A stretch of DNA of 62,844 bases, counting the filler. It is 6 parts of 6 records of this genome, joined end to end, with 100 filler letters (N's around TTAATTAATTAA, not from the genome) between each part and the next. Parts side by side here need not be neighbours in the genome. Positions count along the whole stretch, not along the records: positions 51,429 to 56,744 come from SRR31156797_1787; 5 more parts are not named here. The stretch is one strand, 5' to 3'. How positions within the stretch are numbered: the stretch's first letter is position 1; each line of letters starts with the position of its first letter. Shown piece by piece: positions 7,286-56,844 of the stretch. The notes beneath the pieces were generated by a model. The model saw only the letters and a list, made by a program, of their open reading frames with translations. It searched no databases and was not told the origin of the DNA. A program made the position numbers and the translations under genes.

Positions 7286-7287
7286 GA

Positions 7288-9540: not shown

Positions 9541-9551
9541 GTCCCTGCCCC

Positions 9552-10499
9552 TTATTTCTTAACAGAAACGTTCAAGTCTTTACTTTTATTCGTTTTACCA
9601 AAGCTGCTGCCGATGCTGACCACAACCTGATTGGTGCCAGGTACACCTTCGTTCAGCGCACGGAATTTAATCTTGTTTTTAGGAATGTGTGCTTGGTCGT
9701 TTACGAACTTGATCAGCCCGTAAAGCCTTTTAAAGGATACGGAGTTGGCCATGCTGGATGAGACCGCTTCATGATTGAGCGTCGCAGTAAGCAGTAACCC
9801 TTTTTGCATGATTACAGATTCATTCTGCTTTACCCATGCCAGCAGCTCTGATTCGGTCTTTTCTTCAAGGGTACTGGTCAACTTGTTGTAAAGAATGATG
9901 ACCCGGTTTTTATTGTTCAATCCTTGAACCATCTTGGTAATAAACGGCGGCGGAACGAATTCATCTTCAGTCTGGACCTTTTTCTCAATTGCTCCTTTAG
10001 CTTCAAGACGCTTGATTTTATCAAGGGCGGCCTGAAGTTTTGCAGCAAGTTTGGGGTCCTTTGAGGTCTGTTGCTTTTTGACTTCTTCTTTGAGTCTTTG
10101 GAGTTCCTGATGGGCTGTCCATGCAGCACTTTCCGCAAGGGCCACTCTTTTCTGGAGCATTTTCTTTTCCCGCTCCAATTCTTCAATGTCAATGCGTTGG
10201 GGCTGGGGAGTAGTTACAAGGTCTTCTTTTCCCAGAACAGCACTTTGGGTCATGGCTTCGGTCAGTTTGTCCATAGAAGACGGTTTTTCCATAAAAGAAA
10301 GATCCTGCGCCGCAGCCACCAAGGTTTCCACTTGCTCGGTGGAGTGGGCGGCTCCGGGCTTAACTTCCTTGAGCGCAACAATATATGAGAGCGTTCCGGT
10401 TACCAGCACCATGAGCAGGGTGAAGAACACCATCATCATGAGTACGGTTGAGAGCGCATCAACAAAACCCGGCCACGGAGGGCCGCTATCAGCAGACAT
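9552..10499 (-). CDS. MotB/SiiA-like single-TM protein with C-terminal OmpA-like domain
   Basis: N-terminal PWPGFVDALSTVL with membrane Asp14, coiled-coil stalk, C-terminal ANSVSFKRLYGLIKFVNDQAHIPKNKI resembling the OmpA N..LS..RA..V...L...GI...RI pattern. Confidence 0.75.
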   Translation of the reverse strand: MSADSGPPWPGFVDALSTVLMMMVFFTLLMVLVTGTLSYIVALKEVKPGAAHSTEQVETLVAAAQDLSFMEKPSSMDKLTEAMTQSAVLGKEDLVTTPQPQRIDIEELEREKKMLQKRVALAESAAWTAHQELQRLKEEVKKQQTSKDPKLAAKLQAALDKIKRLEAKGAIEKKVQTEDEFVPPPFITKMVQGLNNKNRVIILYNKLTSTLEEKTESELLAWVKQNESVIMQKGLLLTATLNHEAVSSSMANSVSFKRLYGLIKFVNDQAHIPKNKIKFRALNEGVPGTNQVVVSIGSSFGKTNKSKDLNVSVKK

Positions 10500-10534
10500 T
10501 TATATTTTTCCCCGTAAAATCGTATATCTACAAT

Positions 10535-13500
10535 TTATGAAATGTTAAAATCAATATGGTCGTGATGCACTTCTACATCGACCACTGTGTGGGTTCCGGA
10601 AGTTGTGTCGGTGGTATTGCCGCCAGCCCCTTCCTTGGCCCCATTGAAATCCTGATCACTATTCGTGTTGAATATATCGTCAGTGGTTGTTCCGGTATCC
10701 ATGTCGTCTATGCTGAAACTGAATTCAGTTTTGGACGAGGCGATGGCTGTATCGCCAGAGTCATAGCCCTTGAGCTGAAGTACATAGTTGCCTTCAGTAA
10801 GCGCAGCAAAATTCTTGCTCCAGTTATCGCTAACCGCAACATCCTGAAAACCGTCATAAACAGTGTCACCAGCATCAACTACGCCGTTGTTGTTGGTATC
10901 CACATACAGACTGGCCTTCACAGAAGCAACATCGGAGTCTTTTCCGAGGTCTGCACTGTAATTCAGGTCACTTTTGTCGAGATCAATGTATTGTGATTCC
11001 GATTCGTTACCGGCTTTATCAGTGATTTTTACTTCGGCGTAATCATAGGTGCTGGAGTCGTCTCTGAAAGAGAGTTCAATGTCATCTCCCTCGGTCAGGT
11101 CACCGGAACTAGTCTGAGTGGTATTGCCGTCAGTGTCATGCAGAGTCAGTTCATATTTGTAATGAGTGTCTGTGGTCGAAGGATCATTGTCTCCGGTATA
11201 ATGCGATTGTTCCAGAGATACATATCTTTTGGATCCAACAACATCTGCGGTCATGGTTAACTGGGTTTGGTTGATGTTGTTGTTGTCCAACTGGAAATCA
11301 ACAGTCGAAGCATCCGAAGTGTTACCGGCCTGATCAATTGCCTTGATGCTTACGTTGTAGTTGCCGTCAGCAAGAGGGTGGGCGGAGTCATTGTCCAGAA
11401 AATCGAAATGGTAAGTTCCATCGGCGTTAACAGTGATATTCTGGATGTGGCTATCCTGATTTGCACTGTCCAAGGAATTGTATGTCCATGTTTCTAAACC
11501 ATTGCTGATGACAATGAGGTAGGCCATTTCAGTTGTGTAGTTAATGGACCTGTCCTCAGCAAATTTGCCTTCAAAGGTAAATGATTCACCGCTGGTCAGG
11601 ATTGATCCTACCTCTTCATTAAATCCGCGGTCGGAACTGCTGGACATGTTCATGGTCACAGTGGGGTCAGTTGTATCAACAACGAGGTTAACAGTTACGT
11701 TGTTGGCATCGCGCTGGTTGCCCACTGAATCATAAAATTTAAGGGTGTAAGTATAGCTGCCGTCATCAATGATGTTCAGATCCTGACTGGTCAGATCCAA
11801 TCGGGCGTTCCCGGAGCTGTTGACTGAACCGCTGGCAACCACTTGACCGTCAGACCTGACAAGTTCCACCAGAGACGTTCCTGACGCTGCCTTAACGATC
11901 AGGTCTGTGGTGTTGTCGTTGGTGTTGATGTTTACGACTTTACCAGTCTGTTCAACATAGGTGTTGACGGTTGTAGGGGTACTTCCGGTTTCATCAATCT
12001 GGGTAAAGGTAATGCCTTGTGCTGCTTCTGGCGGAGTCAGGTCCACGTGGATGGTGTAGTCTCTGGATTGGACGTTGCCCGCTTTATCTACTGTGACCAG
12101 CCTGTAGCTGTGGTCACCCTCTGCGAGGGCACTTGCGGACGGAACAGTGTAGTTCTGGTACGCATTTGCAAATGTTCCGCTTTTAACTGCAGTCAAATCC
12201 CCGGTGGTTTTGTCTACATAGTAGAGGACATAAGCCGCTCCGGTATCACCGATAATGTTCAGTTGCGGAGTGGCATCGTTGGTGTAAGTGTCGTCATCAT
12301 TTGCAAGATCGATGTAGGCGGAACGGGTGGGGCTGAGGTCCACCTCAAACGATAATGAGTCACTGGTGGAGGTGTTGCCCGCGGTATCGGTAATTTTAAC
12401 TGAGGCAGTATAATTGCCGTCCAGAAGGTTGCCGGGGGTGCATTCCCATGTACCGTTGGCATCGGCGGTTACAGTGTATTTGGTGATTGTGCCGTTCAAA
12501 GTGATGGAAACAACAACAGTAGCTCCGGCTTCTGCGTCCCCGGTGAGGACCAGATTACGGTCATTGGTGATGTTGTCTTTATCGTAAGCCACACTGGGAT
12601 TACGGAAACCACTGGGCAGGTCTGCATAGGAGCCGACTTTGGTTCCGCTGCTGTTCACAATATCGCCGTCTGCATCAGGGGCAAGGTAGGAATCATCTCC
12701 GGCCTTGATACCGATGGTCGGTTTATCGATGGTTGTGTCCAGATCGAGAATATTCGGGATTACGAGGTTGCTGCTGTTACCTGCAACGTCTGTGGAGTTA
12801 ACGGTAACCCGGTACTGGCCGTCCTTACCGTTCAGGATGGTTGCCAGCTCCCCGGTTTCATAGGAACCGTCGCTCCTGATGTTGTCTGAGTCCACAGTGT
12901 ATGTGTACTTTTCAGTACTTACAAAGTAATCCTTGCCGTCGATGATGGTTTTGTCTGCCGTATTGATTGTGTGACTGGTGCCGGCGCCATCGGTGTAAGA
13001 GTAAGTTCCGTTTCCGTTGTCGGTCAGCTCGTAAACCCTTTCGGCACTTACTTTGACTGTGCTGTCAGCTTCAACATTACCTTCAATGGTCGGATCATTT
13101 GTGATCCAGTCTCCATCGGTTCCGCTATCGTTTTTCAGATCGGCAGTGGGGTCCGGTGTGGAGTTGTCCACGTTGAGGGTAAAATTATCGGACCTTTTAC
13201 CATTAGCAACAACATAGTAAATATTTACGCCTGAAGGATTGGTACCGAAGTCGTAGGTCCAGACCCCGTTCTCTCCAGATTTGGATGTGCCGATCAGATT
13301 GTCACCGTCATCGTAAATTTTGACTTCCTGAAATGCCACCGCTGTACCGGTAAGGGTCAGCTTGGTGTCCGCGGCGAGCAGGGCGGTACTGGTGATGCCG
13401 TCACCGACAATATTGGTGTCGTCATCTGTTGCCAGCTCAACGGTTGGTTTGGCTGCGAGGTCCTGCAGGATTGTGAATTCTTTGGAGTCCTTGCTTACGT

Positions 13501-16500
13501 TTCCGGCCTTATCTGTGCTGGTGATGGTGGCAGTGTATTCTCCGCCTTGCAGATACGGATTATTGCTGCCTTGTCCGTAATGGTATTCCCAGTTACCGCT
13601 GGCATCAGCAATTGTGCTGGCGTCTAATCTCAGTACCTCGGTTCCGCTTTTATCCGTAATGGAAATAATGGTGGTAACATCGTTCTCGGTTGTGGATGTA
13701 CCTGCCAGACGCGGAGTCAAGTCGGTTATGGAATTAAGCGCGGAATCGGGATAAATATCGCCGTCATCCTCGGTCAGGTTGATTGCCGGGGTGGCGGGGC
13801 CATGTGTATCGAGGTTGATGGATATGGACTCAGCCTCAACGTTACCGGCCTTATCTTCAGAGACGATGATAACCTTATAGTATTTATCCCCGTCGCTGAG
13901 GTTGGGGGTAGCCACCCAACTTCCGTCACTGCCGACGGTTACTTCAGTTACCAACGATGCTTTGTTGGTTTCCATGAAAGTACGCAGCTGAGCATCATTC
14001 ATGGAAGTGGGGTCGGCACTGGCATTCAGGGCCGCTTCACTGTCGAAACTTATGACCATCATTCTGGCTTTGCTGCCGACTTCCGCTTTCCCTGAAAGTT
14101 CAGGGGTAGAGTCTTTGGTCAGGATGATCTCTTTAACCCCGATGTCGGTTTCCCCGGTATCGGAACCGGCATCCATTGCCAATGTCAGGTCATCAGAATC
14201 GTATTCTGAGTCGATGACAACGGTTTTGGTAGTTGTGGTGGGGTTACCGTAGGCATCAGTGGTGGTGAAAGTAAAAGTGTAAGTGCCGTCAGCCAGAGAT
14301 GTGGACATATCAATATGGTCCGCGGCAAGCTCTCCGGCATCATCATAGGTACGACTGAATGAAAATGAAGAATCTCCCGCTTTGGAGGCGGTGACTACAA
14401 GTGTGGTACCAACATCTTTCCGGATATTGAAATCCGGGTCTGAATCACGGGTTACCCAGTCCTGATCTGTGTTCGCACCAAAATACTGGGCAGTGGTATC
14501 CTCGGTCATGGAGATGACCGGAGCCGTGGGGTTGGAAGAAATTACAAGTTGGGAATCAAGGCTGATTGTTCCGGTATTGCCCGCAATGTCGGTGATCTTA
14601 GCGGTAACGTCATAGCTGCCGTCGGCTATGCCGCTGTCCGGGGTAATGGTCCAGTTTCCGTTTTTGTCGGCAGTCACGCTTTCGGCGTACTCTACGTCGT
14701 TACCAAATTTATCTGTACCCTTGATGAGCAGTTCCACCAGAGCATAGGCTTCGGTTGTTCCCTGCATGGTCGGGGTATGGTCACTGGTGGCATTATCACC
14801 GCTGACCCCGGTGTCGGAACCAGCTGCCAGTCTGATAGTGCTGGTATCGGTATCGACCTTGTTGTCGAGGACCAAAGTCTTGTGCAGGGTAGTGCTGTTT
14901 CCTGCTGGGTCGGTGGCTTTGATGACAACATCGTTGTTGCCGAGATTCAGCTTGTTGTTATCCAGGCTGAGTGTTGAAAGATCAAAGTTGATTTTACCCG
15001 CAGCAGCTTCAGCATCGGTTACGGTGTGGGTAAAGGTGTGACCGTTCACTGTAACGGTAATGGTAGCACCTTCACTGGCGTCAACGTCAATACTCAGGTT
15101 GTCGTCAATGCTGGTGATCCAGTCATCGGTGTATGAACCACCGCGTCCGGTATCCAGTCCGCTGCCGAGGGCCGCGGAAATAACCGGGTCTGTGCGGTCG
15201 ATATTGATGTCGTAGGTGTCACTGGATGGAACAGTGGTCTGGTTGCCCGCAGCATCTTCGACAATGATTTTGAAATTGTGTTCGCCTTCAGAAATGTATT
15301 TGGCGGAGTCTGTGTCATCGCCAACATTAAAGGACCATTTGTAGCCGCTTCCGGTGTTGGTGATTGTCGCATTTCCGAGATAATGGGGATTGCCTGCACC
15401 ATCCACGCCGTCGTACACGCGTACAACAAGTTTGTCTGAACCTTCCTGAAGTGTTCCGGTCAGGGTCAGTTTGGTGGCATTAGTCTCATTGTCCACGTCG
15501 GAAAGACCGAGAGTGGCTGCATCTTCAACCTCAATATCCCCGACCACTGGAGCTTCATCATCAATGGTTACCGGGTAAATTGCTGAAGTGGCAGTGTTTC
15601 CGGCAGCATCCTCAGCAACTGCAATGAATTGGAGATCTGTCGTATTATTCTCATAGGCGGAAGCATCAAAGGAAACAGTCTGACCGTTTGTGGCTGACCC
15701 GACCAGAGTCGCTTTGTAATCCACGCCGCCCACAGTGATGGTGTGAGTCCCGGCAGCATCTACAACATAGACGCTGATGGTATCATCGTGGTCTCCGGTT
15801 ACCTTGAATTCAATATCAGTATCTTTGGTGCCGGAGCCGTCTTTTACGAATCCGGTGATGTTATCGCCAACTGTTCCCGGACCGCCGATGGTGTTGCTGG
15901 CAGCATCAAGGGCAATGGTCGGAATGGATATCTGCTGATCGGAGGTAAAGGTGAAAGTCTCGGACGCGTCACTCACGTTACCTGCGGCGTCTTCCACAGT
16001 GACGTAATAGGAGTACTTCTGATCATGTACTAGTCCGGTTACATCATAGGACCAGTTTATTGATCCGCCTGATTCGGTAATGGAAAGGAGTCCTCCGCCA
16101 TCAGTCTGGCTGTGCGCAATTTCGGTAACAGTGCCGTCCGCATTCTTGCGGTAGAGGGTGACAATTACATCATCCGCACCTTCGAGAATCTTACCTGTGA
16201 GGGTAAGTCTGTCGCCTTTTACTGTCGCGGAATATCCGTTGGAGTCATGAGAAATTTTATCGTCACCAAGTCCGTCAATGGTGATGGTGGATTTTACCGG
16301 GGCGGTGTTGTCGACGGTCACGGTCAGGTCTGCGCTTTCAATGTTGCCTGCTACGTCTGTGATTTCAGCAACTATTTTAAGTTGCTCTGCGCCTGCTTTA
16401 CCATAAGTAGAAGCATCAAGATTGTATTTCCAGCTACCGTCTGCTTCGGCCTGAATATAACCTGCGGTGTTGATCAGGGTTTTGTTGCCGGCGGCATCTT

Positions 16501-18310
16501 CGAAATAGAGGTTAACCCGGCCTGCTGATCCGGCTCCTGTCCCGCTAATCTTCAGGAGTCCAGCACCGTCTGGATCGCTTGCTTCAGTTCCGTGAGTGTA
16601 GTCGTCTGTTTTGTTGCCAAGCTCAGCGCGGTGGTCTTGTGAATCACTGTCAGCATCAAGATCAATATCTAGACCCTCAGTGGGAGCAGTGCGGTCGATT
16701 TCTACGGGCAGACTGGAAGCAGGTTGGTAAATATTACCTGCCATATCCATGGCTTCGACCATGAAGGTATAGGTTCCGTCAGCTGGGATTTTGCTATTAT
16801 CTACAGTGTAGGTCCACGCAGTCTTAGCCGCGTTGAGGCTAGCTGTTCCAAGTTCGGTTTTGGTACCGTCTGCATTAGCCAGATATACTGTTACCTGACG
16901 CGTATCTGTAACAATATTACTGATGGTCAATTTTAGATCAGTTTCATTGGTTATTTTATCGTTCGCTGCGGCATCAGCATGGGTTCCCATGGAATCAGAC
17001 ACAGTGTCGAGAGCGATGGTCGCACCAGTAGTGAAAGATGTCTTAATTACTACATTTTGAATCTGCTGGGTCGTAGCCAGAGCATTACCCGCATCATCTT
17101 GGCCGGCGATGGTGAAGGTGTAGGTTCCATCAGCAAGTTCACTGCCTTCGGGGAAACGGTAGCTCCAGTTACCACTGCTGTTTACGGTGATATCCTTAAG
17201 GGTTCCTGTAACCGAACCGTCCGTACTGGTGTAAGTGATGGTCAGGATAGTATCGCTTTCGCCAGTACCTTCAATGAGCGGGCGGTTCTGGTTGGTGTAA
17301 ATTTTCCCCGCATCTTCCGCAAAGGTTACCTTGGAAGTTGAGTCTGCTGTAGCATCGTCATTGAGAGTCGGTGCTGTAGTATCTACTTCGACTTCCAATT
17401 TGCTTGATTTAGCTGCACTTTCTCCCGTTCCATCGACTATCTGGGCATAAAATTCGTGATCACCTTCGGCTGCTCCGGTGAGGGTGATATTGTAGTTGCC
17501 GTCTGCGTTGGCAGTTGCTTCCCCTACCTTTGACCCATCCATGAAAATGTTGAGTTTAGTGTTCGGATCAGCAGTGCCTGTAAGCTTCAGGTCCGTTTTG
17601 TTGGTGATTCCGTCTTCTTTGAATTTGGTTTCACTTGTATCACTGTCAGTAATCTTAATACCGGACTCTGATTCCTGAGAAAGGGCAATGGTTACCTTGC
17701 CACTGTTAGGAGTAGGGACGGGGATTGGGTCCGGTATAACGGGGTCTATGGGGTCTGTTTTATCCTTTTCCGGATCATCTGGGTCGTCTGATGGGTCATC
17801 GTGCTTATTTTCTTCAGTATCAATTTTATCAATTGTGTCAGGAGTACTGGAAAGACTCTCCTGCTGCGCAAACTTGTTGATATCATCGAACATGCGCTGC
17901 TGGGTCTTGAGGATGTCGTCGGTGGGGTCGGTGACGAGTGCTGCCTGAGCGTTCAGAAGTTGGCCTTCGCCGAGGTTGCCCTCGTCGGAGTTGCCTTCTT
18001 CGTCTTCTGAGGGGGTGGAATCATCGGTTACAGCTTCCCATTCAGGGGCTTCTTCGTCCTGCTTATCCATGTCAGGCATTTCCGAACGGTGAAACAGGCT
18101 CGGGGAATCAAGGGACTGGCCGTCGGAGAATTCCATGTTGACCTGTCCGTCAAGACTCATGATGTTACCTACAAAGAGGAATACCTGCTCTTCATTGGTC
18201 TGCTTATTGACCAGAATAAGGTCAGCACCTTTGAGGACGTAGTTATAGTCGTCAGGGGAGCCTTGGACATTATATGCTGTTGACGGAGAAACTTTCTGTG
18301 TGTCAGCCAT
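10535..18310 (-). CDS. Giant (2591 aa) T1SS-secreted Ig-like repeat adhesin (SiiE/BapA-like)
   Basis: Asp/Thr/Gly-rich, more than 15 D-x-A-G-N motifs at roughly 100-aa spacing, SD(T/S)G..GD.IT motifs, no Sec signal, embedded among T1SS genes. Confidence 0.9.
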   Translation of the reverse strand: MADTQKVSPSTAYNVQGSPDDYNYVLKGADLILVNKQTNEEQVFLFVGNIMSLDGQVNMEFSDGQSLDSPSLFHRSEMPDMDKQDEEAPEWEAVTDDSTPSEDEEGNSDEGNLGEGQLLNAQAALVTDPTDDILKTQQRMFDDINKFAQQESLSSTPDTIDKIDTEENKHDDPSDDPDDPEKDKTDPIDPVIPDPIPVPTPNSGKVTIALSQESESGIKITDSDTSETKFKEDGITNKTDLKLTGTADPNTKLNIFMDGSKVGEATANADGNYNITLTGAAEGDHEFYAQIVDGTGESAAKSSKLEVEVDTTAPTLNDDATADSTSKVTFAEDAGKIYTNQNRPLIEGTGESDTILTITYTSTDGSVTGTLKDITVNSSGNWSYRFPEGSELADGTYTFTIAGQDDAGNALATTQQIQNVVIKTSFTTGATIALDTVSDSMGTHADAAANDKITNETDLKLTISNIVTDTRQVTVYLANADGTKTELGTASLNAAKTAWTYTVDNSKIPADGTYTFMVEAMDMAGNIYQPASSLPVEIDRTAPTEGLDIDLDADSDSQDHRAELGNKTDDYTHGTEASDPDGAGLLKISGTGAGSAGRVNLYFEDAAGNKTLINTAGYIQAEADGSWKYNLDASTYGKAGAEQLKIVAEITDVAGNIESADLTVTVDNTAPVKSTITIDGLGDDKISHDSNGYSATVKGDRLTLTGKILEGADDVIVTLYRKNADGTVTEIAHSQTDGGGLLSITESGGSINWSYDVTGLVHDQKYSYYVTVEDAAGNVSDASETFTFTSDQQISIPTIALDAASNTIGGPGTVGDNITGFVKDGSGTKDTDIEFKVTGDHDDTISVYVVDAAGTHTITVGGVDYKATLVGSATNGQTVSFDASAYENNTTDLQFIAVAEDAAGNTATSAIYPVTIDDEAPVVGDIEVEDAATLGLSDVDNETNATKLTLTGTLQEGSDKLVVRVYDGVDGAGNPHYLGNATITNTGSGYKWSFNVGDDTDSAKYISEGEHNFKIIVEDAAGNQTTVPSSDTYDINIDRTDPVISAALGSGLDTGRGGSYTDDWITSIDDNLSIDVDASEGATITVTVNGHTFTHTVTDAEAAAGKINFDLSTLSLDNNKLNLGNNDVVIKATDPAGNSTTLHKTLVLDNKVDTDTSTIRLAAGSDTGVSGDNATSDHTPTMQGTTEAYALVELLIKGTDKFGNDVEYAESVTADKNGNWTITPDSGIADGSYDVTAKITDIAGNTGTISLDSQLVISSNPTAPVISMTEDTTAQYFGANTDQDWVTRDSDPDFNIRKDVGTTLVVTASKAGDSSFSFSRTYDDAGELAADHIDMSTSLADGTYTFTFTTTDAYGNPTTTTKTVVIDSEYDSDDLTLAMDAGSDTGETDIGVKEIILTKDSTPELSGKAEVGSKARMMVISFDSEAALNASADPTSMNDAQLRTFMETNKASLVTEVTVGSDGSWVATPNLSDGDKYYKVIIVSEDKAGNVEAESISINLDTHGPATPAINLTEDDGDIYPDSALNSITDLTPRLAGTSTTENDVTTIISITDKSGTEVLRLDASTIADASGNWEYHYGQGSNNPYLQGGEYTATITSTDKAGNVSKDSKEFTILQDLAAKPTVELATDDDTNIVGDGITSTALLAADTKLTLTGTAVAFQEVKIYDDGDNLIGTSKSGENGVWTYDFGTNPSGVNIYYVVANGKRSDNFTLNVDNSTPDPTADLKNDSGTDGDWITNDPTIEGNVEADSTVKVSAERVYELTDNGNGTYSYTDGAGTSHTINTADKTIIDGKDYFVSTEKYTYTVDSDNIRSDGSYETGELATILNGKDGQYRVTVNSTDVAGNSSNLVIPNILDLDTTIDKPTIGIKAGDDSYLAPDADGDIVNSSGTKVGSYADLPSGFRNPSVAYDKDNITNDRNLVLTGDAEAGATVVVSITLNGTITKYTVTADANGTWECTPGNLLDGNYTASVKITDTAGNTSTSDSLSFEVDLSPTRSAYIDLANDDDTYTNDATPQLNIIGDTGAAYVLYYVDKTTGDLTAVKSGTFANAYQNYTVPSASALAEGDHSYRLVTVDKAGNVQSRDYTIHVDLTPPEAAQGITFTQIDETGSTPTTVNTYVEQTGKVVNINTNDNTTDLIVKAASGTSLVELVRSDGQVVASGSVNSSGNARLDLTSQDLNIIDDGSYTYTLKFYDSVGNQRDANNVTVNLVVDTTDPTVTMNMSSSSDRGFNEEVGSILTSGESFTFEGKFAEDRSINYTTEMAYLIVISNGLETWTYNSLDSANQDSHIQNITVNADGTYHFDFLDNDSAHPLADGNYNVSIKAIDQAGNTSDASTVDFQLDNNNINQTQLTMTADVVGSKRYVSLEQSHYTGDNDPSTTDTHYKYELTLHDTDGNTTQTSSGDLTEGDDIELSFRDDSSTYDYAEVKITDKAGNESESQYIDLDKSDLNYSADLGKDSDVASVKASLYVDTNNNGVVDAGDTVYDGFQDVAVSDNWSKNFAALTEGNYVLQLKGYDSGDTAIASSKTEFSFSIDDMDTGTTTDDIFNTNSDQDFNGAKEGAGGNTTDTTSGTHTVVDVEVHHDHIDFNIS

Positions 18311-18312
18311 GA

Positions 18313-19866
18313 CTATTCACCTATAGCAGAGTAGAGGGAGTTGCTGTTTTCAAATGGAACTTCTTCCACTGATAGCCCCAGAATTTCGGGGAGTCTGCCT
18401 TGTTCGAGAAAAATATTGAGTGCCGCGCGGATTCTAGAATAGCGGGCGTTCACTTCGCGCACAGCTGCGCTTGTTTGCCCTTCGCGGGCAGTAATGAGAT
18501 CGAGCAGGGTTCGGATACCGAGATCAAATTCACTCAAGTAGAGGCTCATGAGGTTGATACTTGCATCATAGGCGTCCCGGGCAAGCTCGAATTCCTTTTT
18601 AGACGACTTGTGAGCATTGAAGGCATCGGAAAGGATATTCTGAACTTCAAGCTCGGTGGCTTCCTTGGTTGCCTGCAATCTTTTTAGTACGGCTTCTTCC
18701 CTTTTTACGCCTTCGTCTGTGGCATAGCCGTTGAACAGGTTCCAGTTGACGGTGACCTGAGCGTCCAGAGCATTTTCATAGCCATCGTATTTTTTGAATT
18801 CACTCTTGGCCTGCAACCTGTACCCGAATGAGGGGTAGTAGTTTGCTTCTACTGTGGAGACTGCTTTTTTCTGTGATTCAATTTCAGCATCATAAGCCCT
18901 GAGGTTTACGTTGTTGGCCTTGGCAATTTCGTAGGCTCCTTCGAGGGTCTCTGAAATTTTCATTTTAGCCATGGCAATGTCAGTTTCGACTTCATTGACA
19001 GGCTGCTTGATGATGTTTTCGAGAAGCAGTCTGGCTGTTTTGAGCTGCTGCTTCTGTACAGTGACTTGGGATTCAGTGGACCGCAGCGAGACTTCAACCT
19101 TGCGGGCATCAGCCTTTGAGGAGATACCGGCATTGTAGCGTTCCCAGAAAGTCTTCAGCAGTTTGTTGTAAAATTCCAAGCTGTTGTTGTATACCTGCAG
19201 GGTCTCCTGCGCCTGCATCACGCTCAGGTATGAGTTGATGGCAAGAGCTGCAATGTCTTCCTGTGTACGGGCCAGACGGTATTTCGCGCCTACAGCCTTC
19301 ATCTTGGCACTGTCCACACTGTCGTCCAGACCGCCGAAGTTGAAGAATGTCTGGGTCATGGCAACGGAGGACTGCCCGTAACTGGTGGTCTCTGTATCGA
19401 GGTTATGCGAAGGACCGGCCTGTGCTGTAAAGTCGATCCGTGGCATGTATACCTGACGGGCCATGCCGTACTCTGCATTCTTTTCAAGTAAAGAGTAGCG
19501 GGATGATGCCACCAGCGGATGGTTGCCTACAGCCAGTTCACAGGCATGCTGTAGGGTCAGGGGCGTCGCATTCGCTGCATTGGGACTGTTTTCCTGTAAG
19601 GAAGAGCCCTTCTCGCCGGGGTCTTCAATCTTGATGACTCCCTGTTTAAAGGATTCAATGTCCTCAGCGTTTTTGTACTCTTGGTTCTTATTTTCCAACC
19701 CCGAAAGGTTGACTGTTTCTACTGAGTTTTCCATTATAGGCTGGGGAGGAGTGCCTTGTGTGGAATTTTCTGCAAAAGAAACATTGCTCTGGAAAGTAAG
19801 GAGCGCACAGAGAATGCAAGCTGTTCCGAATTTCTTAATCATCATCCCTGACATATATTCACCCAA
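18313..19866 (-). CDS. TolC-family outer-membrane protein of the T1SS (SiiC/LapE-like)
   Basis: Signal peptide, two OEP repeats, WNLFNG, EFDLGIRTLLDLI. Confidence 0.93.
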   Translation of the reverse strand: MGEYMSGMMIKKFGTACILCALLTFQSNVSFAENSTQGTPPQPIMENSVETVNLSGLENKNQEYKNAEDIESFKQGVIKIEDPGEKGSSLQENSPNAANATPLTLQHACELAVGNHPLVASSRYSLLEKNAEYGMARQVYMPRIDFTAQAGPSHNLDTETTSYGQSSVAMTQTFFNFGGLDDSVDSAKMKAVGAKYRLARTQEDIAALAINSYLSVMQAQETLQVYNNSLEFYNKLLKTFWERYNAGISSKADARKVEVSLRSTESQVTVQKQQLKTARLLLENIIKQPVNEVETDIAMAKMKISETLEGAYEIAKANNVNLRAYDAEIESQKKAVSTVEANYYPSFGYRLQAKSEFKKYDGYENALDAQVTVNWNLFNGYATDEGVKREEAVLKRLQATKEATELEVQNILSDAFNAHKSSKKEFELARDAYDASINLMSLYLSEFDLGIRTLLDLITAREGQTSAAVREVNARYSRIRAALNIFLEQGRLPEILGLSVEEVPFENSNSLYSAIGE

Positions 19867-25692: not shown

Positions 25693-25792
25693 NNNNNNNN
25701 NNNNNNNNNNNNNNNNNNNNNNNNNNNNNNNNNNNNTTAATTAATTAANNNNNNNNNNNNNNNNNNNNNNNNNNNNNNNNNNNNNNNNNNNN
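25693..25792. other. Artificial contig spacer
   Basis: N44-TTAATTAATTAA-N44, with stops in all six frames. Confidence 0.99.
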
Positions 25793-36340: not shown

Positions 36341-36440
36341 NNNNNNNNNNNNNNNNNNNNNNNNNNNNNNNNNNNNNNNNNNNNTTAATTAATTAANNNN
36401 NNNNNNNNNNNNNNNNNNNNNNNNNNNNNNNNNNNNNNNN
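36341..36440. other. Artificial contig spacer
   Basis: N-TTAATTAATTAA-N. Confidence 0.99.
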
Positions 36441-44864: not shown

Positions 44865-44964
44865 NNNNNNNNNNNNNNNNNNNNNNNNNNNNNNNNNNNN
44901 NNNNNNNNTTAATTAATTAANNNNNNNNNNNNNNNNNNNNNNNNNNNNNNNNNNNNNNNNNNNN
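44865..44964. other. Artificial contig spacer
   Basis: N-TTAATTAATTAA-N. Confidence 0.99.
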
Positions 44965-51328: not shown

Positions 51329-51428
51329 NNNNNNNNNNNNNNNNNNNNNNNNNNNNNNNNNNNNNNNNNNNNTTAATTAATTAANNNNNNNNNNNNNNNN
51401 NNNNNNNNNNNNNNNNNNNNNNNNNNNN
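51329..51428. other. Artificial contig spacer
   Basis: N-TTAATTAATTAA-N. Confidence 0.99.
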
Positions 51429-51882
51429 ATAAGGCGGAAGAAAACAATGTCGGGGTCCCCCTGCCCCCTTTATGAACCGGAATGCAGATTTCCTTGTCCG
51501 AGTCAGCCCAGGCGTCAATAAGGCGGTTTATTATTTCAGGAAAAATGAAAGGTTGGTCGCCAAGCAGGAACATAGCCGCACTGCAGTCACTTTTTACCAC
51601 GTTTAGTCCCTTTTTCAGAGAAGATGACTGGCCTTCCTTGTATTCACGGTTTATCACTATTTCCAGGCGAGTTTTTTCTTTGTATTCCAGGCCGGCCGCC
51701 GCTTTTTCAGCTTCATAACCAAGAACCAATACTACGCGATCCAGCCTGGACTCAAGAGCGGACTGAACAACCATATCCAACATAGTTCGGCCGTTAATAC
51801 GCATAAGCTGCTTGGGCGACCCCATACGGCTGGATGCGCCCGCAGCCAGGATAATCCCGGCTACAGAAGGATTCCCGGTCAC
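51429..51882 (-). CDS. MocA/YgfJ-like molybdenum cofactor cytidylyltransferase, truncated
   Basis: IILAAGASSRMGSPKQL, GQSSSL, LGDQP. Confidence 0.88.
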
Positions 51883-52694
51883 CTTTCGCCCCTGAATGAA
51901 TGAATTTCCAATGGGCGTTTTGGATTTTTCAATGCGCCGAGAATCGCCATGTCCAATTTATTCGACTCGCCCCCGGCAAGTATTCCGCATATACGCCGCC
52001 CCTTTTCAGTTAATTCCTGGTTGTCGGCCTGGTTGAGGAAAACGATTCGCCGGGCCGACTGCGGTGCACCCTTGAATAAGCCTTTCTCATGCATCAATAT
52101 AGCTGCGATCGCTTCTTCAGTGACCGGCGATCCGATTTCCAAGCCGGTGATGCCGGAAAACAATTGAGAGCGAAAAACATGTTCTTCATCAAGCGGCCGG
52201 TCGACAGCCGTAAGGCCGACGACCGCCACAACAACCGTGCTGCAGTCAGGTATGACCGGTTCATGATCCGCCGGCGCCTTTAAAGGCATCATCCTGGCGC
52301 CGTCCGCTTCCACAAGCAGCCAGTCAAATTCATTGGCCTGCCGAATAAGCTCTATAGTTTCAGGATTATAGCCCACAAGCTTGCCTTTTTCCTCATCGTA
52401 CAATGCCGCAGCGGTCATATGACGGCATGCGGGTTCGTAACGTCTAAAGACGGCGCCGATTTCCTCAATATCGGGCGACACGTGGACTACCGAGGATTGT
52501 TCGGGAGTCGGCCAAAATATTTTGGTTGTGGTCGTGCTAAGAACCTTGCAACCATCCTGAGCCAGCTCACGGGCCAGTCGAAACATTAAGGAGGTCTTCC
52601 CTCCCCCGCCCACCAGACTTAATACGCCTCGGGATTCCAGCCCCAGGGCCTGCGCCGGACTTTTCTTTTCTTCAACTTTTTCCGTATTTGACAT
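51879..52694 (-). CDS. yqeC: Selenium-dependent molybdenum hydroxylase accessory protein YqeC
   Basis: LVGGGGKTSLM, STTTTKI, LVEADGA..MPLKAPADHEPVIP, GLFKGAP, FLNQAD. Confidence 0.9.
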   Translation of the reverse strand: MSNTEKVEEKKSPAQALGLESRGVLSLVGGGGKTSLMFRLARELAQDGCKVLSTTTTKIFWPTPEQSSVVHVSPDIEEIGAVFRRYEPACRHMTAAALYDEEKGKLVGYNPETIELIRQANEFDWLLVEADGARMMPLKAPADHEPVIPDCSTVVVAVVGLTAVDRPLDEEHVFRSQLFSGITGLEIGSPVTEEAIAAILMHEKGLFKGAPQSARRIVFLNQADNQELTEKGRRICGILAGGESNKLDMAILGALKNPKRPLEIHSFRGER

Positions 52695-52859
52695 GTCATC
52701 GCTTCCATTCGAACAATCGGCTTGATTGCAATTCGGCTATTATAGCTCTGGCCGGCAGGGTTTGTAAAACTTTTAGCCAGTCGAACGCCTGGAAACCCGT
52801 CGTAGTTTACTTAACGCCATTCGGTCAGCCAGGCAATCGAGGGCCTTACGAAAAAAAAC

Positions 52860-52887
52860 TTGACACTAAAAACCTGAGGTATAAAAT
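52860..52887 (+). promoter_or_regulatory. sigma70 promoter candidate for the tetR-OYE operon
   Basis: TTGACA-N16-TAAAAT, about 280 nt upstream of tetR. Confidence 0.55.
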
Positions 52888-53168
52888 AGTATTAAGCAAA
52901 TCACTGAAATTCAATCTCTCAAATATTAATATTGTCGTATTTTCAAATTGTTATTGATCCTATTGTCATTAGGGGCTTCTTGATCGATTAATATCGGGCT
53001 TTTGGAAAAATCCATTTGAATCCTTTTGTCCCGGCCGCTTTTCGACTCGTGTTTAGTCCATTTTTAGATCGATTAGGCAATGATTGTGCAACGATCACAT
53101 TTCCAATTTGGAATCAGACAAATTATTACATAAACATTTCAACATGTTGATTCAGGAGATATCGCTCA

Positions 53169-53801
53169 TTGGGCAGTAATAAAAAAAATGGAAACACCAG
53201 GGAACGGATAATTGATTCTGCCAGGCAGCTCTTTGCCGAAAACGGTTACCAAAAAACCACGATAGTGGATATTTCAAGGCTGGCCGGAGTATCCGAGGCG
53301 GCCTTGTATGAATATTTTAAGGGCAAGGAGGACTTGCTTCAAACCATCCCGCAGTTGTGGGCTCTGGAATTGTTGAACGACCTTGAAGACCAGCTGTTCG
53401 GCATTAAAGGCGCTTTTAACAAGTTGAGAAAATACCTGTGGTGGAACCTTCGCCGCATCGAAGAATCGCCTCTCAACGCCAAGATCGTTTATTTGCATTT
53501 GAAAACCAATGCCGGTTTCATGGAAACGGACGTGTTTCAAACCGTAAAAAAGCTCTACGCCTACCTGGTTGATATTATAGAAGAAGGCAAGGCTTCCGGT
53601 GAAATAAAGCCGGACCTGGATGTATATGTCGCCCGGAATATTTTTATCGGGGCCATGGATTACATTGTCACCCGCTGGCTTTTGCGGGACATGTCCTACA
53701 GTTTGTTTGACAAACTTGAAGAAACGTTTGATCTGTTGGTGGACGCCTTTGCCAATCGAAGCGAATCAAATGGACGGGGGACGGTCGAACCTGGATCGTA
53801 G
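53169..53801 (+). CDS. TetR/AcrR-family regulator
   Basis: RIIDSARQLFAENGY..TT..DI...AGVSEAALYEYFKGKEDL; CAGGAG RBS with TTG start. Confidence 0.93.
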   Translation: MGSNKKNGNTRERIIDSARQLFAENGYQKTTIVDISRLAGVSEAALYEYFKGKEDLLQTIPQLWALELLNDLEDQLFGIKGAFNKLRKYLWWNLRRIEESPLNAKIVYLHLKTNAGFMETDVFQTVKKLYAYLVDIIEEGKASGEIKPDLDVYVARNIFIGAMDYIVTRWLLRDMSYSLFDKLEETFDLLVDAFANRSESNGRGTVEPGS

Positions 53802-53940
53802 ACATAACCGAATCGCCCTGCCCCGTCCCACGTTGGCAGCTCCATCGACCGCCCCGGCCGCTGAAAGCGGTGCGGATCAATTGCGGACCCAATGCTTATT
53901 AACATTGAAGGCAATATTGATATCAGGGGAGGTAGATTAA

Positions 53941-55932
53941 ATGGCCAAAGTTCTTTTCGAATGGGATTACTCTTCCTACCCGGGAGCCCAAAAGTATCCC
54001 AACCTGTTTAAACCCATTCAAATCGGAAACATTCTCGTACCCAACCGAATCAAGTATGCCGCCACTGAAGAAAACCTTAACGACCTTAACGGCTTTATCA
54101 CGGACGCGGGCACGGCGTATATGAGATCCAGGGCCGAAGGCGTGGTCGGCGGCCTGTGTTTCATGCAAGGCGTTTACATGGACGAAACCGGGAAGGGCCA
54201 GGGTTATGTCGGGCAGGCCGCGGCCTGGGATGACAAATTCATTCCCGGCCTTAAGCGGATAGCCGACGCCATTCACGAGGAAAGGGCCGTGGCCGGCTTT
54301 CAGCTCATGGACTGCGGCCGGGTCGGGGCCGTGGAAGCGCCTTACGGGCACGGCCCGTCCACTGTGCCCCAGCGGCTCAGGATATTTAAGCCCATGTATG
54401 AAATGAGCGTGGCTGAAATCGAGGAAATGGTCCGGCAGCATGCGGATGCGGCCAGGCGCGGGGCTGAAGCCGGGTTCGATGTTATGGAAATATCCGGCAT
54501 TGTAGGCTATTTAATATCCAATTTTATATCCAGCTACACCAACAGGCGCACGGATAAGTACGGCGGAGACATCCGTGGACGCATGCAGGCGGTGGTGGAA
54601 ATTATCCAGGCAGTCAATGAGGCGGTCGGACCTGACATCCCGGTGGGCATCCGCCTTTGCGCCGAAGAGCTTCTGGACGACGTGCGGGGCAATACGCCGG
54701 AAGAATCCATGCAGTCCTATGTAATATCCGAGGAGGCCGGCGTTGATTACATCAGCGTCACAGCCGGGTGGCAGGAATCCATTGTTCCTGTTATCAGCCG
54801 CGACGTGCCCATGGGGTCGTGGCTGCACCTGGCCAAGCGGGCCAAGGAGCACGTCAAGGTCCCCATCCAGATGGCCTATCGCCTGTTTGTCCCCGAGTTG
54901 CCCGACAAGGCTATTGCGGACAACGAACTGGATATTTGGGAAATTTGCCGTTCCATGATCGCCGACCCGCTCATGCCCAAAAAGGTGCTGGAAGACCGCC
55001 AGGAGGAAGTCCGCCACTGCGTGGCCTGTAACCTGTGCCTGGCCCGTCTTTTCCGGGACGCTCCCATGACCTGTTACATCAATCCCTTGTGCGCTCACGA
55101 ACACGACGAAAGGTTCTATCCCCATCCTGTATCCGAAGACGACAGGAAGGAAGTTATGATTGTCGGCGCCGGACCGGCCGGCATGGAATGCGCTTACACA
55201 GCCGCCCAAAGGGGGCACGAAGTCCATGTTTATGACAAGAATGAAGAATTGGGGGGCTCGCTTCTTGAAGCTTCCAAGGCGCCGTACGGGGACGATGAAC
55301 TGATGACCTGCGTGGCCTATCAGAAAACCATGTGCGAGAAATACGGCGTTGAATTTCACCTGGGCGAGGAAGTAACCGGTGAAATGATCGAGGACGCCAT
55401 GCCCGATACGGTTGTATTGGCCACTGGACCTGCCTACCCCGCCATACCCTGTTCCGATCCTGACGACAAAAGGATTGTCAACGTGCTGGACGTTCTGGGC
55501 GGCCGGGCCGAAGTCGGCGAAAAGATAGTCATCTGGGGCAATCGGAAGCCCGGCATCGGCGCGGCCCTTCATCTGGCCAAGCAGGGAAAGAAAGTCACGA
55601 TTGTGGGCAAGGAAAAATCGGCCGGTTTTGACGTAAATCCGTCCTTCAAATGGCGTTACATGATTTACCTTCGCCAAAACAAGGTCAATGCATACAACGG
55701 ATGCGACATAGTGGAAATAAACGATGACGGGGTCCTGGTCAGAACTTATGACGGTTATCACTTCCCTGTAGCATGCGACACCATTATTCTTACCGACCGC
55801 GCAGCCAATGAAAATCTCAAGAACGTGGTGCAGGGCGAAGGCATAGAGTTGTTCGTGGTCGGCGATGCATTGGTTCCGCGCAACCTTTCCAGCGCGGTTC
55901 ATGACGGTTACAGAATTGGAATAAGGATATAA
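53941..55932 (+). CDS. Old-yellow-enzyme family FMN/FAD/[4Fe-4S] oxidoreductase (FadH/NCR-like)
   Basis: LFKPIQIG..VPNRI, EISGIVGYLISNF, NRRTDKYGG, CVACNLC..C cluster motif, GAGPAG. Confidence 0.92.
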   Translation: MAKVLFEWDYSSYPGAQKYPNLFKPIQIGNILVPNRIKYAATEENLNDLNGFITDAGTAYMRSRAEGVVGGLCFMQGVYMDETGKGQGYVGQAAAWDDKFIPGLKRIADAIHEERAVAGFQLMDCGRVGAVEAPYGHGPSTVPQRLRIFKPMYEMSVAEIEEMVRQHADAARRGAEAGFDVMEISGIVGYLISNFISSYTNRRTDKYGGDIRGRMQAVVEIIQAVNEAVGPDIPVGIRLCAEELLDDVRGNTPEESMQSYVISEEAGVDYISVTAGWQESIVPVISRDVPMGSWLHLAKRAKEHVKVPIQMAYRLFVPELPDKAIADNELDIWEICRSMIADPLMPKKVLEDRQEEVRHCVACNLCLARLFRDAPMTCYINPLCAHEHDERFYPHPVSEDDRKEVMIVGAGPAGMECAYTAAQRGHEVHVYDKNEELGGSLLEASKAPYGDDELMTCVAYQKTMCEKYGVEFHLGEEVTGEMIEDAMPDTVVLATGPAYPAIPCSDPDDKRIVNVLDVLGGRAEVGEKIVIWGNRKPGIGAALHLAKQGKKVTIVGKEKSAGFDVNPSFKWRYMIYLRQNKVNAYNGCDIVEINDDGVLVRTYDGYHFPVACDTIILTDRAANENLKNVVQGEGIELFVVGDALVPRNLSSAVHDGYRIGIRI

Positions 55933-55950
55933 GGTCCGGGAGGTTTAGAC

Positions 55951-56478
55951 ATGCCTTTTGATGCGGAAAAAGAAATCAACAGGATGTGGAGACATCTTCA
56001 GGGCGCCCAGGCCGAAATAGGCAAGGCGTACATGAGATGGCGTCAGGCCGCCCTGGAAATTGCCGGAGACGGCGCCGACCCTCTCGAAGTCAGTTTAAAA
56101 GCGGCCGAAGTCGCGGGCCTCGAGATAGGCAAAAATATGCTCCCCCGGCTCAACTGGTTGAAAGGTGAAGAAGTCTGGCTGAAGACAATGGCCGGACAGC
56201 TGGCCGGCATCTGGACCACTCAGGGTGCTGTCGTCACGGTGGAAAAAGGGGAATCCCCTCTGGAGATATTTATAAAATGGGAAAGATGCCCATGGCCCAC
56301 GTACGCCAAGGAATACGACGTTTCCATGGAAGAAGACGTGCTGTGCTGCGACTGTATCCTTAAATCGGCCCTCACTGACGTCAACGCCTTTTTCAACGTC
56401 AATTACGAAATAGAAACGTTGAAAGCCATTCCCCGCGGCCAGGGCGTTTGCCTTAGAAGACTTTACAAAGCTGAATAA
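55951..56478 (+). CDS. V4R/ATC-hydrolase-like small ligand-binding protein
   Basis: Helical N-half, then RCPW...LCCDC...G.GVC pattern; GGGAGG RBS. Confidence 0.6.
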   Translation: MPFDAEKEINRMWRHLQGAQAEIGKAYMRWRQAALEIAGDGADPLEVSLKAAEVAGLEIGKNMLPRLNWLKGEEVWLKTMAGQLAGIWTTQGAVVTVEKGESPLEIFIKWERCPWPTYAKEYDVSMEEDVLCCDCILKSALTDVNAFFNVNYEIETLKAIPRGQGVCLRRLYKAE

Positions 56479-56493
56479 CGGGAGGTTTTAAAA

Positions 56494-56700
56494 ATGGCGG
56501 CTCAGATTGACTATGAAAAGTGCAATATGTGCGGCGGAACCTCTCAGCCTTTGTGCATAGAGGTCTGCCCCGACCAGGCCATAAGGGTTCAGGACGGCCG
56601 TGTCGTGGTTACGGAATTTATTTGCGAGGACTGCAACGAATGCGGCTGCGTCTGCCCTGACGAGGCCATAACCGTGCCACTGGAGAAAGTAACATTTTAA
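56494..56700 (+). CDS. 2x[4Fe-4S] ferredoxin
   Basis: CNMC.......CIEVCP and CEDCNECGCVCP; GGGAGG RBS. Confidence 0.92.
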   Translation: MAAQIDYEKCNMCGGTSQPLCIEVCPDQAIRVQDGRVVVTEFICEDCNECGCVCPDEAITVPLEKVTF

Positions 56701-56744
56701 CTAGTGTCTGCCCGGAAATGGTTATTTTTCCCAATCTCTTTGTC

Positions 56745-56844
56745 NNNNNNNNNNNNNNNNNNNNNNNNNNNNNNNNNNNNNNNNNNNNTTAATTAATTAA
56801 NNNNNNNNNNNNNNNNNNNNNNNNNNNNNNNNNNNNNNNNNNNN
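56745..56844. other. Artificial contig spacer
   Basis: N-TTAATTAATTAA-N. Confidence 0.99.

Follow-up and report, generated by a model that had tools for sequence, protein, structure and literature searches.

An old yellow enzyme of the 2-naphthoyl-CoA reductase lineage encoded with a ferredoxin and a putative V4R-fold protein: a candidate ferredoxin-fed CoA-ester reductase

The DNA analysed here (the window; 62,844 nucleotides (nt), filler included) consists of six contigs joined by five N44-TTAATTAATTAA-N44 spacers (25693-25792, 36341-36440, 44865-44964, 51329-51428 and 56745-56844). The spacers separate contigs, so gene neighbourhood can be read only within each contig. One contig of 5.3 kb (51429-56744) carries on its plus strand a gene for a FadH-type old yellow enzyme (OYE) of 663 amino acids (aa; 53941..55932), which is followed by genes for a 175-aa protein termed P175 (55951..56478) and an acidic 68-aa 2[4Fe-4S] ferredoxin (56494..56700), and preceded by a TetR-family regulator gene, the first of the unit (53169..53801). 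Judged by sequence comparison, the OYE belongs to the lineage of 2-naphthoyl-CoA reductase (NCR) as a separate long-branch family. We favour the reading, which we rate a little above even, that it is a ferredoxin-fed CoA-ester reductase working with an HdrA-type, NAD(P)-linked bifurcating module, with P175 as a ligand-binding partner and an acyl-CoA-responsive TetR regulator.

An earlier note on this DNA, made from the sequence alone, had described strong Shine-Dalgarno sequences and gaps of less than 20 nt ahead of the two genes that follow the OYE gene, and these are borne out. The OYE and P175 genes are separated by 18 nt and the P175 and ferredoxin genes by 15 nt, with GGGAGG ahead of both downstream start sites and GGGGAGG ahead of that of the OYE. 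The contig ends 44 bases past the ferredoxin gene (56701..56744), at the position where related loci continue with a VOC-family gene and genes for HdrA-N, HdrA-MvhD and GltD-like proteins; for this genome, we therefore infer this module from its relatives. No VOC or Hdr homologue was found on the other contigs of the window, and the remaining contigs hold nothing related to the OYE cluster.

The OYE has the architecture of a flavin mononucleotide (FMN) TIM barrel, a [4Fe-4S] linker, a flavin adenine dinucleotide (FAD) domain plus a second alpha/beta domain (Pfam Oxidored_FMN, 1.9e-54, then Pyr_redox_2, 1.2e-16). It shares the three-domain build with FMN, [4Fe-4S] and FAD with NCR and the other type III aryl-CoA reductases (DHNCR, AprB-E). 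In HMMER searches of the PDB, NCR (6qkg_A) is the best solved match (447.7 bits, E 6.6e-133), ahead of Escherichia coli FadH (1ps9; 262.5 bits) and histamine dehydrogenase (3k30; 200.4 bits). An AlphaFold2 (AF2) model built with 60 orthologues reached a predicted local distance difference test score (pLDDT) of 81.5; its weak regions are the cofactor and substrate loops. Foldseek searches with this model returned NCR at a template modelling (TM) score of 0.81 and 37% identity, FadH at 0.82 and 26% identity, and histamine dehydrogenase at 0.77. None of the NCBIfam equivalog cut-offs was reached by the OYE (mycofactocin OYE_2, 406.5 of 793 bits; BaiCD, 341.5 of 825; long bilirubin reductase, 291.2 of 750).

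When 1.84 billion representatives were scored, the OYE clade came down to a single full-length representative at 75% identity (P0121), after which identity to the OYE falls sharply, to 42% for P0124, 40% for P0125 and 36% for P0126. The same three representatives score 726, 431 and 396 bits against NCR 6qkg, and the first of these scores suggests that P0124 stands for, or adjoins, the NCR cluster. A quick IQ-TREE phylogeny (LG+G4) was built from 56 rows, namely the window protein, ten loci and the first 45 full-length representatives, with fragments and lower-ranked representatives excluded. In this tree, the OYE clade stands as a monophyletic group (SH-aLRT 100) at the end of a long stem, its sister is a group of P0125, P0126 and P0129 (99), which may be DHNCR- or Apr-like, and P0124 joins next (99). 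This placement points to a distinct family within the NCR lineage rather than to an NCR orthologue. The earlier view of the protein as a FadH/NCR-like enzyme is upheld by the top solved match and by the tree; near-identity to a characterised NCR, which the same note had allowed for, was not found, as the OYE is only 37% identical to NCR and 42% identical to the nearest NCR-cluster representative, and forms its own clade.

The shared architecture, the histamine dehydrogenase matches (200 bits, TM 0.77) and the BaiCD and bilirubin reductase scores could also suit an oxidising enzyme of the trimethylamine/histamine dehydrogenase type, or a bile-acid- or bilirubin-type reductase, that exchanges electrons with the ferredoxin. 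We regard this as very improbable. The BaiCD and bilirubin scores fall far below their cut-offs, and P0150 and P0155, whose dinucleotide loop has become a His-rich insert and which are labelled amine-dehydrogenase-like as a guess from that loop, lie far from the OYE clade in the tree. The GAGPAG motif for FAD is moreover intact in the OYE, whereas the amine dehydrogenases bind ADP (PMC6502838).

Conservation was assessed in 69 unique OYE orthologues, drawn from 74 full-length sequences of which one was omitted because it held a stop or X. All the motifs on which the earlier note was built occur in the translation and are invariant or nearly so. EISGIVGY (183-190) and GWQE (276-279) are the same in every orthologue. 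In the cluster motif CVACNLC...C (360-378), the first Cys is kept in 68 of 69 sequences and the other three in all, and the GxGxxG of the FAD domain (GAGPAG, 409-414) in 68-69. The second dinucleotide loop (IWGNRKPG, 531-538) has invariant residues at G533, N534, K536, P537 and G538, as well as at G540 just beyond it; 57 orthologues have W at position 532 and 12 have Y, and position 535 is R in 65, K in three and L in one. The resulting consensus is (W/Y)GN(R/K)KPGIG. When aligned, FadH has G-C-G-G-I-G where the OYE has G-N-R-K-P-G, the central Gly of GxGxxG being replaced by Arg. NCR, which reads G-G-N-E-I-S at this loop, has lost the central Gly as well.

Since the replacement is itself conserved across orthologues, the altered NAD(P)H loop is better described as a new conserved motif than as decay. 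Most other representatives of the FadH family keep GGGxxG, and the central Gly is lost in P0124 (GGKEIG), P0133 (GGDETG) and several scattered others. The OYE resembles FadH in its fold and in an E-x-x-G-x-x-G-Y active-site loop with the catalytic Tyr; the substrate of FadH is likewise a CoA ester. Two hallmarks of FadH, an intact second GxGxxG (its GCGGIG loop for NADPH) and His252 of GWHE, are absent from the OYE, which has GNRKPG and GWQE in their place. FadH further differs in having His26 and in lacking counterparts of two NCR residues kept here, E341 and Y320.

The NCR residues named by Willistein et al. 2019 (PMC6502838) were mapped onto the OYE through the HMMER pairwise alignment to 6qkg. 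A numbering check reproduced V38, G81, Y82, I194, V195, Y197, R245, N247, T280, G282, H284, Y320, E341, F375, V378, F379, W459, N540-I542, Q545, D569, F573, D649, V653, K655 and L656; H84 and Y166 of that paper have no match in the chain numbering of 6qkg. Of the seven catalytic and thioester residues (Y197, Y320, T280, G282, R245, E341 and H284), all except H284 are kept. The proton donor Y197 corresponds to Y190, present in 69 of 69 orthologues, and the thioester/enolate contacts are retained as Y313 (NCR Y320; 69 of 69), T280 and G282. R245 is kept, and E341 is found as E334 in 67 of 69 orthologues; in NCR, E341 counterbalances R245 and brings down the FMN potential, and it is absent in FadH (PMC6502838). 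The GYVGQ loop (G81-Y82), the IVGY loop (I194/V195) and F379 of NCR are also preserved. V38 of NCR, equivalent to H26 of FadH, is Glu43 in all 69 sequences; together with the kept E341, this additional Glu at the FMN would fit a low-potential flavin. Other changes from NCR are N247 to C240, F375 and V378 to Leu, and F573 to Ser.

The ferredoxin (Pfam Fer4, Fer4_10 and related models) has the motifs CxxCx7CxxxCP and CxxCxxCxxxCP, and all eight Cys residues (C10, C13, C21 and C25; C44, C47, C50 and C54) are invariant in 63 of 63 unique orthologues. It has an isoelectric point of 4.05. The invariant Lys536 of the OYE and the neighbouring Arg/Lys535 face the region where NCR is thought to dock its electron donor and, by analogy, could form a docking site for this acidic protein. 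A ferredoxin gene is also part of the phenanthrene cluster, where it is aprA (PMC13101529).

The three genes form a conserved linked set, as the earlier note would have it. Linkage was examined in two sets of loci. The first, selected by P175, holds at least 15 loci from species-representative genomes, and among the matches listed the order OYE-P175-ferredoxin on one strand occurs in 15 of 15 genome loci, with a VOC gene next after the ferredoxin in 15 of 15. The metagenome-assembled genomes of these loci are labelled Desulfomonile, Syntrophaceae, Desulfobacteraceae, Deltaproteobacteria, Proteobacteria and Dehalococcoidia. The second set consists of 75 loci at 72-82% identity, retained from 324 metagenome-contig relatives that were found with the OYE, and its counts refer to loci whose DNA reaches far enough downstream of the OYE. 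P175 follows the OYE in 61 of 61 such loci, the ferredoxin is found in 50 of 50 and the VOC gene in 46 of 46. Farther downstream come a 448-aa HdrA-type protein (HdrA-N; 30 of 30), a fusion of HdrA and MvhD of about 690 aa (23 of 23) and a GltD-like protein of about 590 aa (18 of 20).

These downstream proteins would suit the low-potential electron supply that had been proposed from the three genes in the window. HdrA-N aligns with the HdrA2 model over its positions 141-558 (446 bits), and the protein of about 690 aa matches the HdrA2 model (621 bits), HdrA (5odc_A; 388 bits) and MvhD (5odc_D; 122.7 bits). The protein of about 590 aa combines an HdrC-like 2[4Fe-4S] N-terminus with a GltD/NfnB-like body. 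HdrB is absent from the core order of the related loci and from the Pfam matches of the open reading frames (ORFs) scanned. The related loci thus resemble HdrA2B2C2 of Methanosarcina acetivorans in their HdrA-MvhD fusion and differ from it in lacking HdrB, in carrying the HdrC-like domain as part of a GltD-like NAD(P)H protein, and in encoding a second, shorter HdrA-type protein.

In the solved Mvh-Hdr complexes, the clusters of HdrC lead to the high-potential branch. By analogy, the fusion of an HdrC-like domain to an NAD(P) protein suggests NAD(P)+ as the high-potential partner, with the ferredoxin and the OYE on the low-potential branch, as in class II benzoyl-CoA reductase. Like BamBCDEFGHI, the related loci combine a catalytic reductase with a small Fe-S carrier, HdrA-type flavoproteins, an MvhD-type component and an NAD(P)-linked subunit, and without ATP (PMC12016498). 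The catalytic subunit is a flavoenzyme here and a tungsten enzyme of the AOR type in Bam, the NAD(P) subunit is GltD/NfnB-like instead of NuoEFG-like, and an HdrD-like protein is missing from the OYE loci.

P175 has no Pfam or NCBIfam match at E<=0.01 and no sequence match in the PDB. It has 212 homologues at E <= 0.001; the best 120 of these are 57-99% identical to it, and those that are named are all called hypothetical. One of them, P0001, is 99% identical and lies on a 10.4-kb contig. The AF2 model of P175 has a pLDDT of 92.9 and a predicted TM score of 0.85. Foldseek matched this model to Bet3/TRAPPC3 (E 7.9e-5, TM 0.5-0.57) and to the phenol-sensor domain of PoxR (E 5.8e-4, TM 0.54), with DmpR, MopR and H-NOX among the further matches and a probability of 1.0 for Bet3, PoxR and H-NOX. 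VIA-align, run against all chains, placed Bet3 first (2cfh_A; Z 9.3, 145 residues, 4.2 A), along with PoxR (Z 8.8), the V4R-family protein MJ1460 (Z 8.0), DmpR (Z 8.0) and H-NOX (Z 6.9). The top 12 chains, with Z from 9.3 down to 6.5, comprise ten of the Bet3/TRAPP, V4R (PoxR, DmpR, MJ1460) or H-NOX type and two BcsD chains, and values of 7-8 can arise without kinship.

Family-level searches point in the same direction. ATC_hydrolase (PF14196) scores 15.1 bits against P175, below its gathering threshold of 28.1. Among 32 relatives scanned, 26 match this family at E<=10 (all sub-threshold, best 3.3e-4), six match DUF6144 and four match MetOD1; V4R (PF02830) matched neither P175 nor the relatives scanned. 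In the protein atlas, the neighbours of P175 are clusters named ATC hydrolase family (scores 0.94-0.97). MetOD1, V4R, HNOB and ATC hydrolase are related, and a cluster of three Cys residues is common to V4R (PoxR, MopR), ATC hydrolase and MetOD1 (Galperin et al. 2018, PMC5847659). On the strength of the predicted model and these neighbours, P175 is best taken as a divergent member of the ATC-hydrolase family with a V4R/Bet3/H-NOX fold, and the label "V4R-like" given to it earlier is sound for fold and superfamily.

In an alignment of 60 P175 orthologues paired with unique OYEs, 20 have the triad C113/C133/C167, as does the window protein, and form a subtype with W110/C113/D129/C133/D134/C167 that includes the window's P175. 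The other 40 have C110, V129, R133, E134 and Y, T or W at 167, with D113 in 26 of them. From this pattern, the Cys triad resembles a structural site open to replacement by contacts of charged and aromatic side chains. Metal binding as the core function of the family is ruled out by the 40 orthologues without the triad. Of the earlier proposal of a ligand- or metal-binding accessory subunit, the ligand-binding part agrees with the V4R-type fold, and the metal-binding part does not extend to the family. P175 differs from the known members of the superfold in that it stands alone, scores below every Pfam threshold, swaps the Cys triad for Arg, Glu and an aromatic residue in two thirds of cases, and always lies next to the OYE. 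A separate 381-aa protein with an MBOAT Pfam label (P0271), encoded on a 1.7-kb contig, matches half of P175 at 60% identity and is probably a gene-calling or assembly artefact.

In the reading we favour, the OYE would reduce a CoA thioester bearing a conjugated ring or diene; hydride would pass from FMN to the substrate and a proton would come from Tyr190. Because the dinucleotide loop of its third domain has been rebuilt into the basic (W/Y)GN(R/K)KPG, the enzyme would take no electrons directly from NAD(P)H. Single electrons would instead travel from the 68-aa ferredoxin to FAD, [4Fe-4S] and FMN, as worked out for NCR. In related loci, the operon goes on with the VOC protein, a pair of HdrA-type flavoproteins, of which one is an MvhD fusion, and the GltD/NfnB-like protein with its HdrC-like N-terminus. 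These would include a flavin-based bifurcating module linking NAD(P)(H) with the ferredoxin and, through it, with the reductase, in the way that BamC-I serves BamB. P175 could be a V4R-type binder of hydrophobic ligands that delivers the substrate or stabilises the complex, and the FadR/YsiA-type TetR regulator probably frees the operon upon binding acyl-CoA. We put forward more tentatively, as something possible rather than likely, that the system is a hybrid of two ATP-independent routes of ring reduction, in which an NCR-type flavin hydride enzyme is supplied, through a dedicated ferredoxin, with electrons that its own HdrA/MvhD/GltD bifurcating module drives to very low potential, with substrate delivery by a V4R-type protein.

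Several observations weigh against the favoured reading, beginning with the active site. The proton-donor Tyr of NCR is activated by H284, and all 69 orthologues have Gln278 at that place. W459 of NCR, which is said to block the NADPH site (PMC6502838), gives way to Leu454 by the multiple alignment or to Glu453 by the pairwise alignment. Around the FAD, E541 of NCR becomes K536, N540 becomes R535, I542 becomes P537, Q545 becomes G540 and E446 becomes S440; the acidic surroundings of NCR are thereby reversed or lost in favour of the basic NRKPG loop, so that the tuning of NCR has not been copied. The loss of the loop, as far as the alignments go, would agree with NCR, whereas the means by which NCR excludes NADPH and tunes its FAD appear not to have been retained. 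What stands of the lost NAD(P)H motif in the earlier note is therefore the rebuilt second loop, as in NCR; that NAD(P)H is no longer used is read from the motif, with neither the Trp459 block nor the acidic FAD pocket being kept.

Another reading is that the OYE still binds NAD(P)H despite its changed loop, or that it lacks an organic substrate and serves as an NAD(P)H:ferredoxin oxidoreductase. The latter role has been proposed for an OYE-type oxidoreductase and a ferredoxin encoded next to the genes of class I tetrahydronaphthoyl-CoA reductase in N47 and NaphS2 (PMC12016498). The loop retains G533 and G538, an acidic residue follows the next strand (Glu558; E in 45, D in 21 and N in three orthologues), and the scattered loss of the central Gly among FadH-family representatives suggests that such a loss may be tolerated. 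Both variants nevertheless seem improbable to us. The substrate-side residues of NCR (the proton-donor Tyr, Y320/T280/G282 and the hydrophobic pocket) are invariant, which would be unexpected without a CoA-ester substrate, and the GltD-like NAD(P)H enzyme in the operon (18 of 20 loci) would make a second NAD(P)H site redundant.

The counts of linked genes have their own qualifications. Near-duplicate loci (L024/L025, L080/L081 and L005/L062) mean that the counts overstate independence. The GltD-like protein is missing in L056 and L063, and HdrA-N is present in 10 of 12 genome loci with room for it, being absent from L011 and L015. The Hdr-type module is seen in related loci only, as the window contig stops before its place. 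A search for P175 within longer proteins found no OYE-P175 or P175-ferredoxin fusion, so there is no Rosetta-stone evidence for the partnership.

The remaining objection concerns the substrate. The flanks outside the core vary among related loci. A class I/II aminotransferase lies between the VOC gene and HdrA-N in 11 loci of one subclade (e.g. L029:12302-13483), and a FadB-like fusion of 3-hydroxyacyl-CoA dehydrogenase and enoyl-CoA hydratase lies beside the core in 10 loci (e.g. L024:4243-6264); both are hints to the substrate. Other flanking genes encode thiolases (six loci), AMP-forming CoA ligases (three) and branched-chain-type ABC binding proteins (six). Such beta-oxidation and amino-acid genes fit ordinary catabolism with a high-potential acceptor. 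Neither a UbiD-type carboxylase nor a class I aryl-CoA reductase was found by Pfam among 114 ORFs of related loci, and the window contains no gene context for breaking down polycyclic aromatic hydrocarbons (PAHs) by Pfam. The flanks point to a CoA-ester pathway and do not indicate a polycyclic aromatic substrate; the ring-bearing substrate envisaged in the earlier note is thus not borne out by the neighbouring genes.

The main alternative, which these neighbours favour, is that the OYE step is the exergonic branch of a bifurcation, acting on an ordinary enoyl- or 2,4-dienoyl-CoA from the breakdown of fatty acids or amino acids. NAD(P)H would enter through the GltD-like protein, one electron would pass through MvhD or the ferredoxin to the OYE, and the other would reduce ferredoxin for energy conservation, much as in Bcd/EtfAB or caffeyl-CoA reductase and built from other proteins. 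The FadR/YsiA-like regulator, the FadB-like, thiolase, CoA ligase and aminotransferase genes, the lack of aromatic-pathway genes among the flanks scanned, the fold shared with FadH, and the resemblance of the VOC protein to methylmalonyl-CoA epimerase (73 bits, cut-off 115) all accord with it. We judge it rather unlikely. Sequence and tree group the OYE with NCR and away from FadH, and the kept E341 and the invariant Glu43, which stands against His26 in FadH and Val38 in NCR, both point to a low-potential FMN. Sequence alone cannot separate this alternative from the low-potential, ferredoxin-fed reductase that we favour.

The comparison with NCR also extends to gene content, where P175, the VOC protein and the Hdr-type proteins are obligate neighbours of the OYE and the context of PAH carboxylase, ligase and class I reductase is missing. 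NCR and AprB-E work with artificial low-potential donors, and 2-oxoglutarate:ferredoxin oxidoreductase is proposed as the source of reduced ferredoxin (PMC6502838, PMC12093976, PMC13101529, PMC13365417, PMC12016498, PMC6849830). In papers of 2019-2026, the natural donor of NCR and the Apr reductases is still described as of low potential and probably a ferredoxin, although its identity is not known (PMC6502838, PMC12093976, PMC13365417). The passages on NCR and AprB-E in those six papers make no mention of an Hdr-type module or a V4R-type partner. A search by title and start of abstract, with most subscription journals outside it, found no published description of an OYE paired with Hdr-type genes.

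Within the NCR lineage, a sister clade is therefore encoded with a specific ferredoxin in every locus that could be judged, and in most of them with an Hdr-type NAD(P)-linked module, which turns the open question of the donor into a short list of proteins. The clade is common (324 metagenome relatives), and its substrate is thus likely to be frequent in anoxic sediments. The loci also provide a first context for a 175-aa family without annotation. They are of relevance to the fields of anaerobic ring reduction and electron bifurcation. If the more tentative hybrid of two ring-reduction routes were true, type III-like reductases would have their first natural chain of electron supply, and the cluster would hint at a route, widespread in anoxic sediments yet unrecognised, for a common CoA ester of a ring or polyene.

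The regulator at the head of the unit is of the FadR/YsiA type (Pfam TetR_N, 1.4e-16; TetR_C_4, YsiA-like, 2.1e-15) and scores 106.6 bits against the NCBIfam model of Bacillus-type FadR, below the cut-off of 200. As had been proposed, a TetR gene accompanies the trio: it lies directly upstream in the window and upstream of the OYE in 47 of 55 metagenome loci and 5 of 12 genome loci, often 20-60 nt away. No terminators or promoters within the unit scored above shuffles, no inverted-repeat operator was found, and the spacers between the TetR and OYE genes have no k-mers in common beyond the Shine-Dalgarno sequence. The spacer upstream of the TetR gene contains GATCGATTA twice (52982-52990 and 53067-53075), 85 nt apart; window-wide there are three copies, and 3 of 100 shuffles reach that count, which makes it a weak signal.

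This spacer of 475 nt separates the TetR gene from two genes on the minus strand (51373-52694) that encode a MocA-like molybdenum (Mo) cofactor cytidylyltransferase, cut, and YqeC. The latter scores 212.8 bits with the YqeC model (selenium cofactor biosynthesis), above its cut-off. At L011 (9641-13285), a Mo enzyme of the xanthine dehydrogenase family, with FAD, 2Fe-2S and Mo-cofactor subunits, replaces the HdrA genes after the VOC gene; it scores 595 bits against the model for the alpha subunit of 4-hydroxybenzoyl-CoA reductase (cut-off 994). Together with MocA and YqeC beside the cluster, this enzyme could be a second link between the OYE cluster and Mo hydroxylases.

Elsewhere in the window, the minus strand at 5993-19866 encodes a type I secretion set (HlyD-like, ABC exporter and outer-membrane OEP proteins) around a 2591-aa protein of Big_13 and other bacterial Ig-like repeats, which is probably a giant secreted adhesin. 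On a separate contig (56845-62268, minus strand), three genes in succession encode a WD40 beta-propeller protein that the contig end truncates, a protein with DUF3160, and one that combines a caspase domain (Peptidase_C14) with DUF4384.

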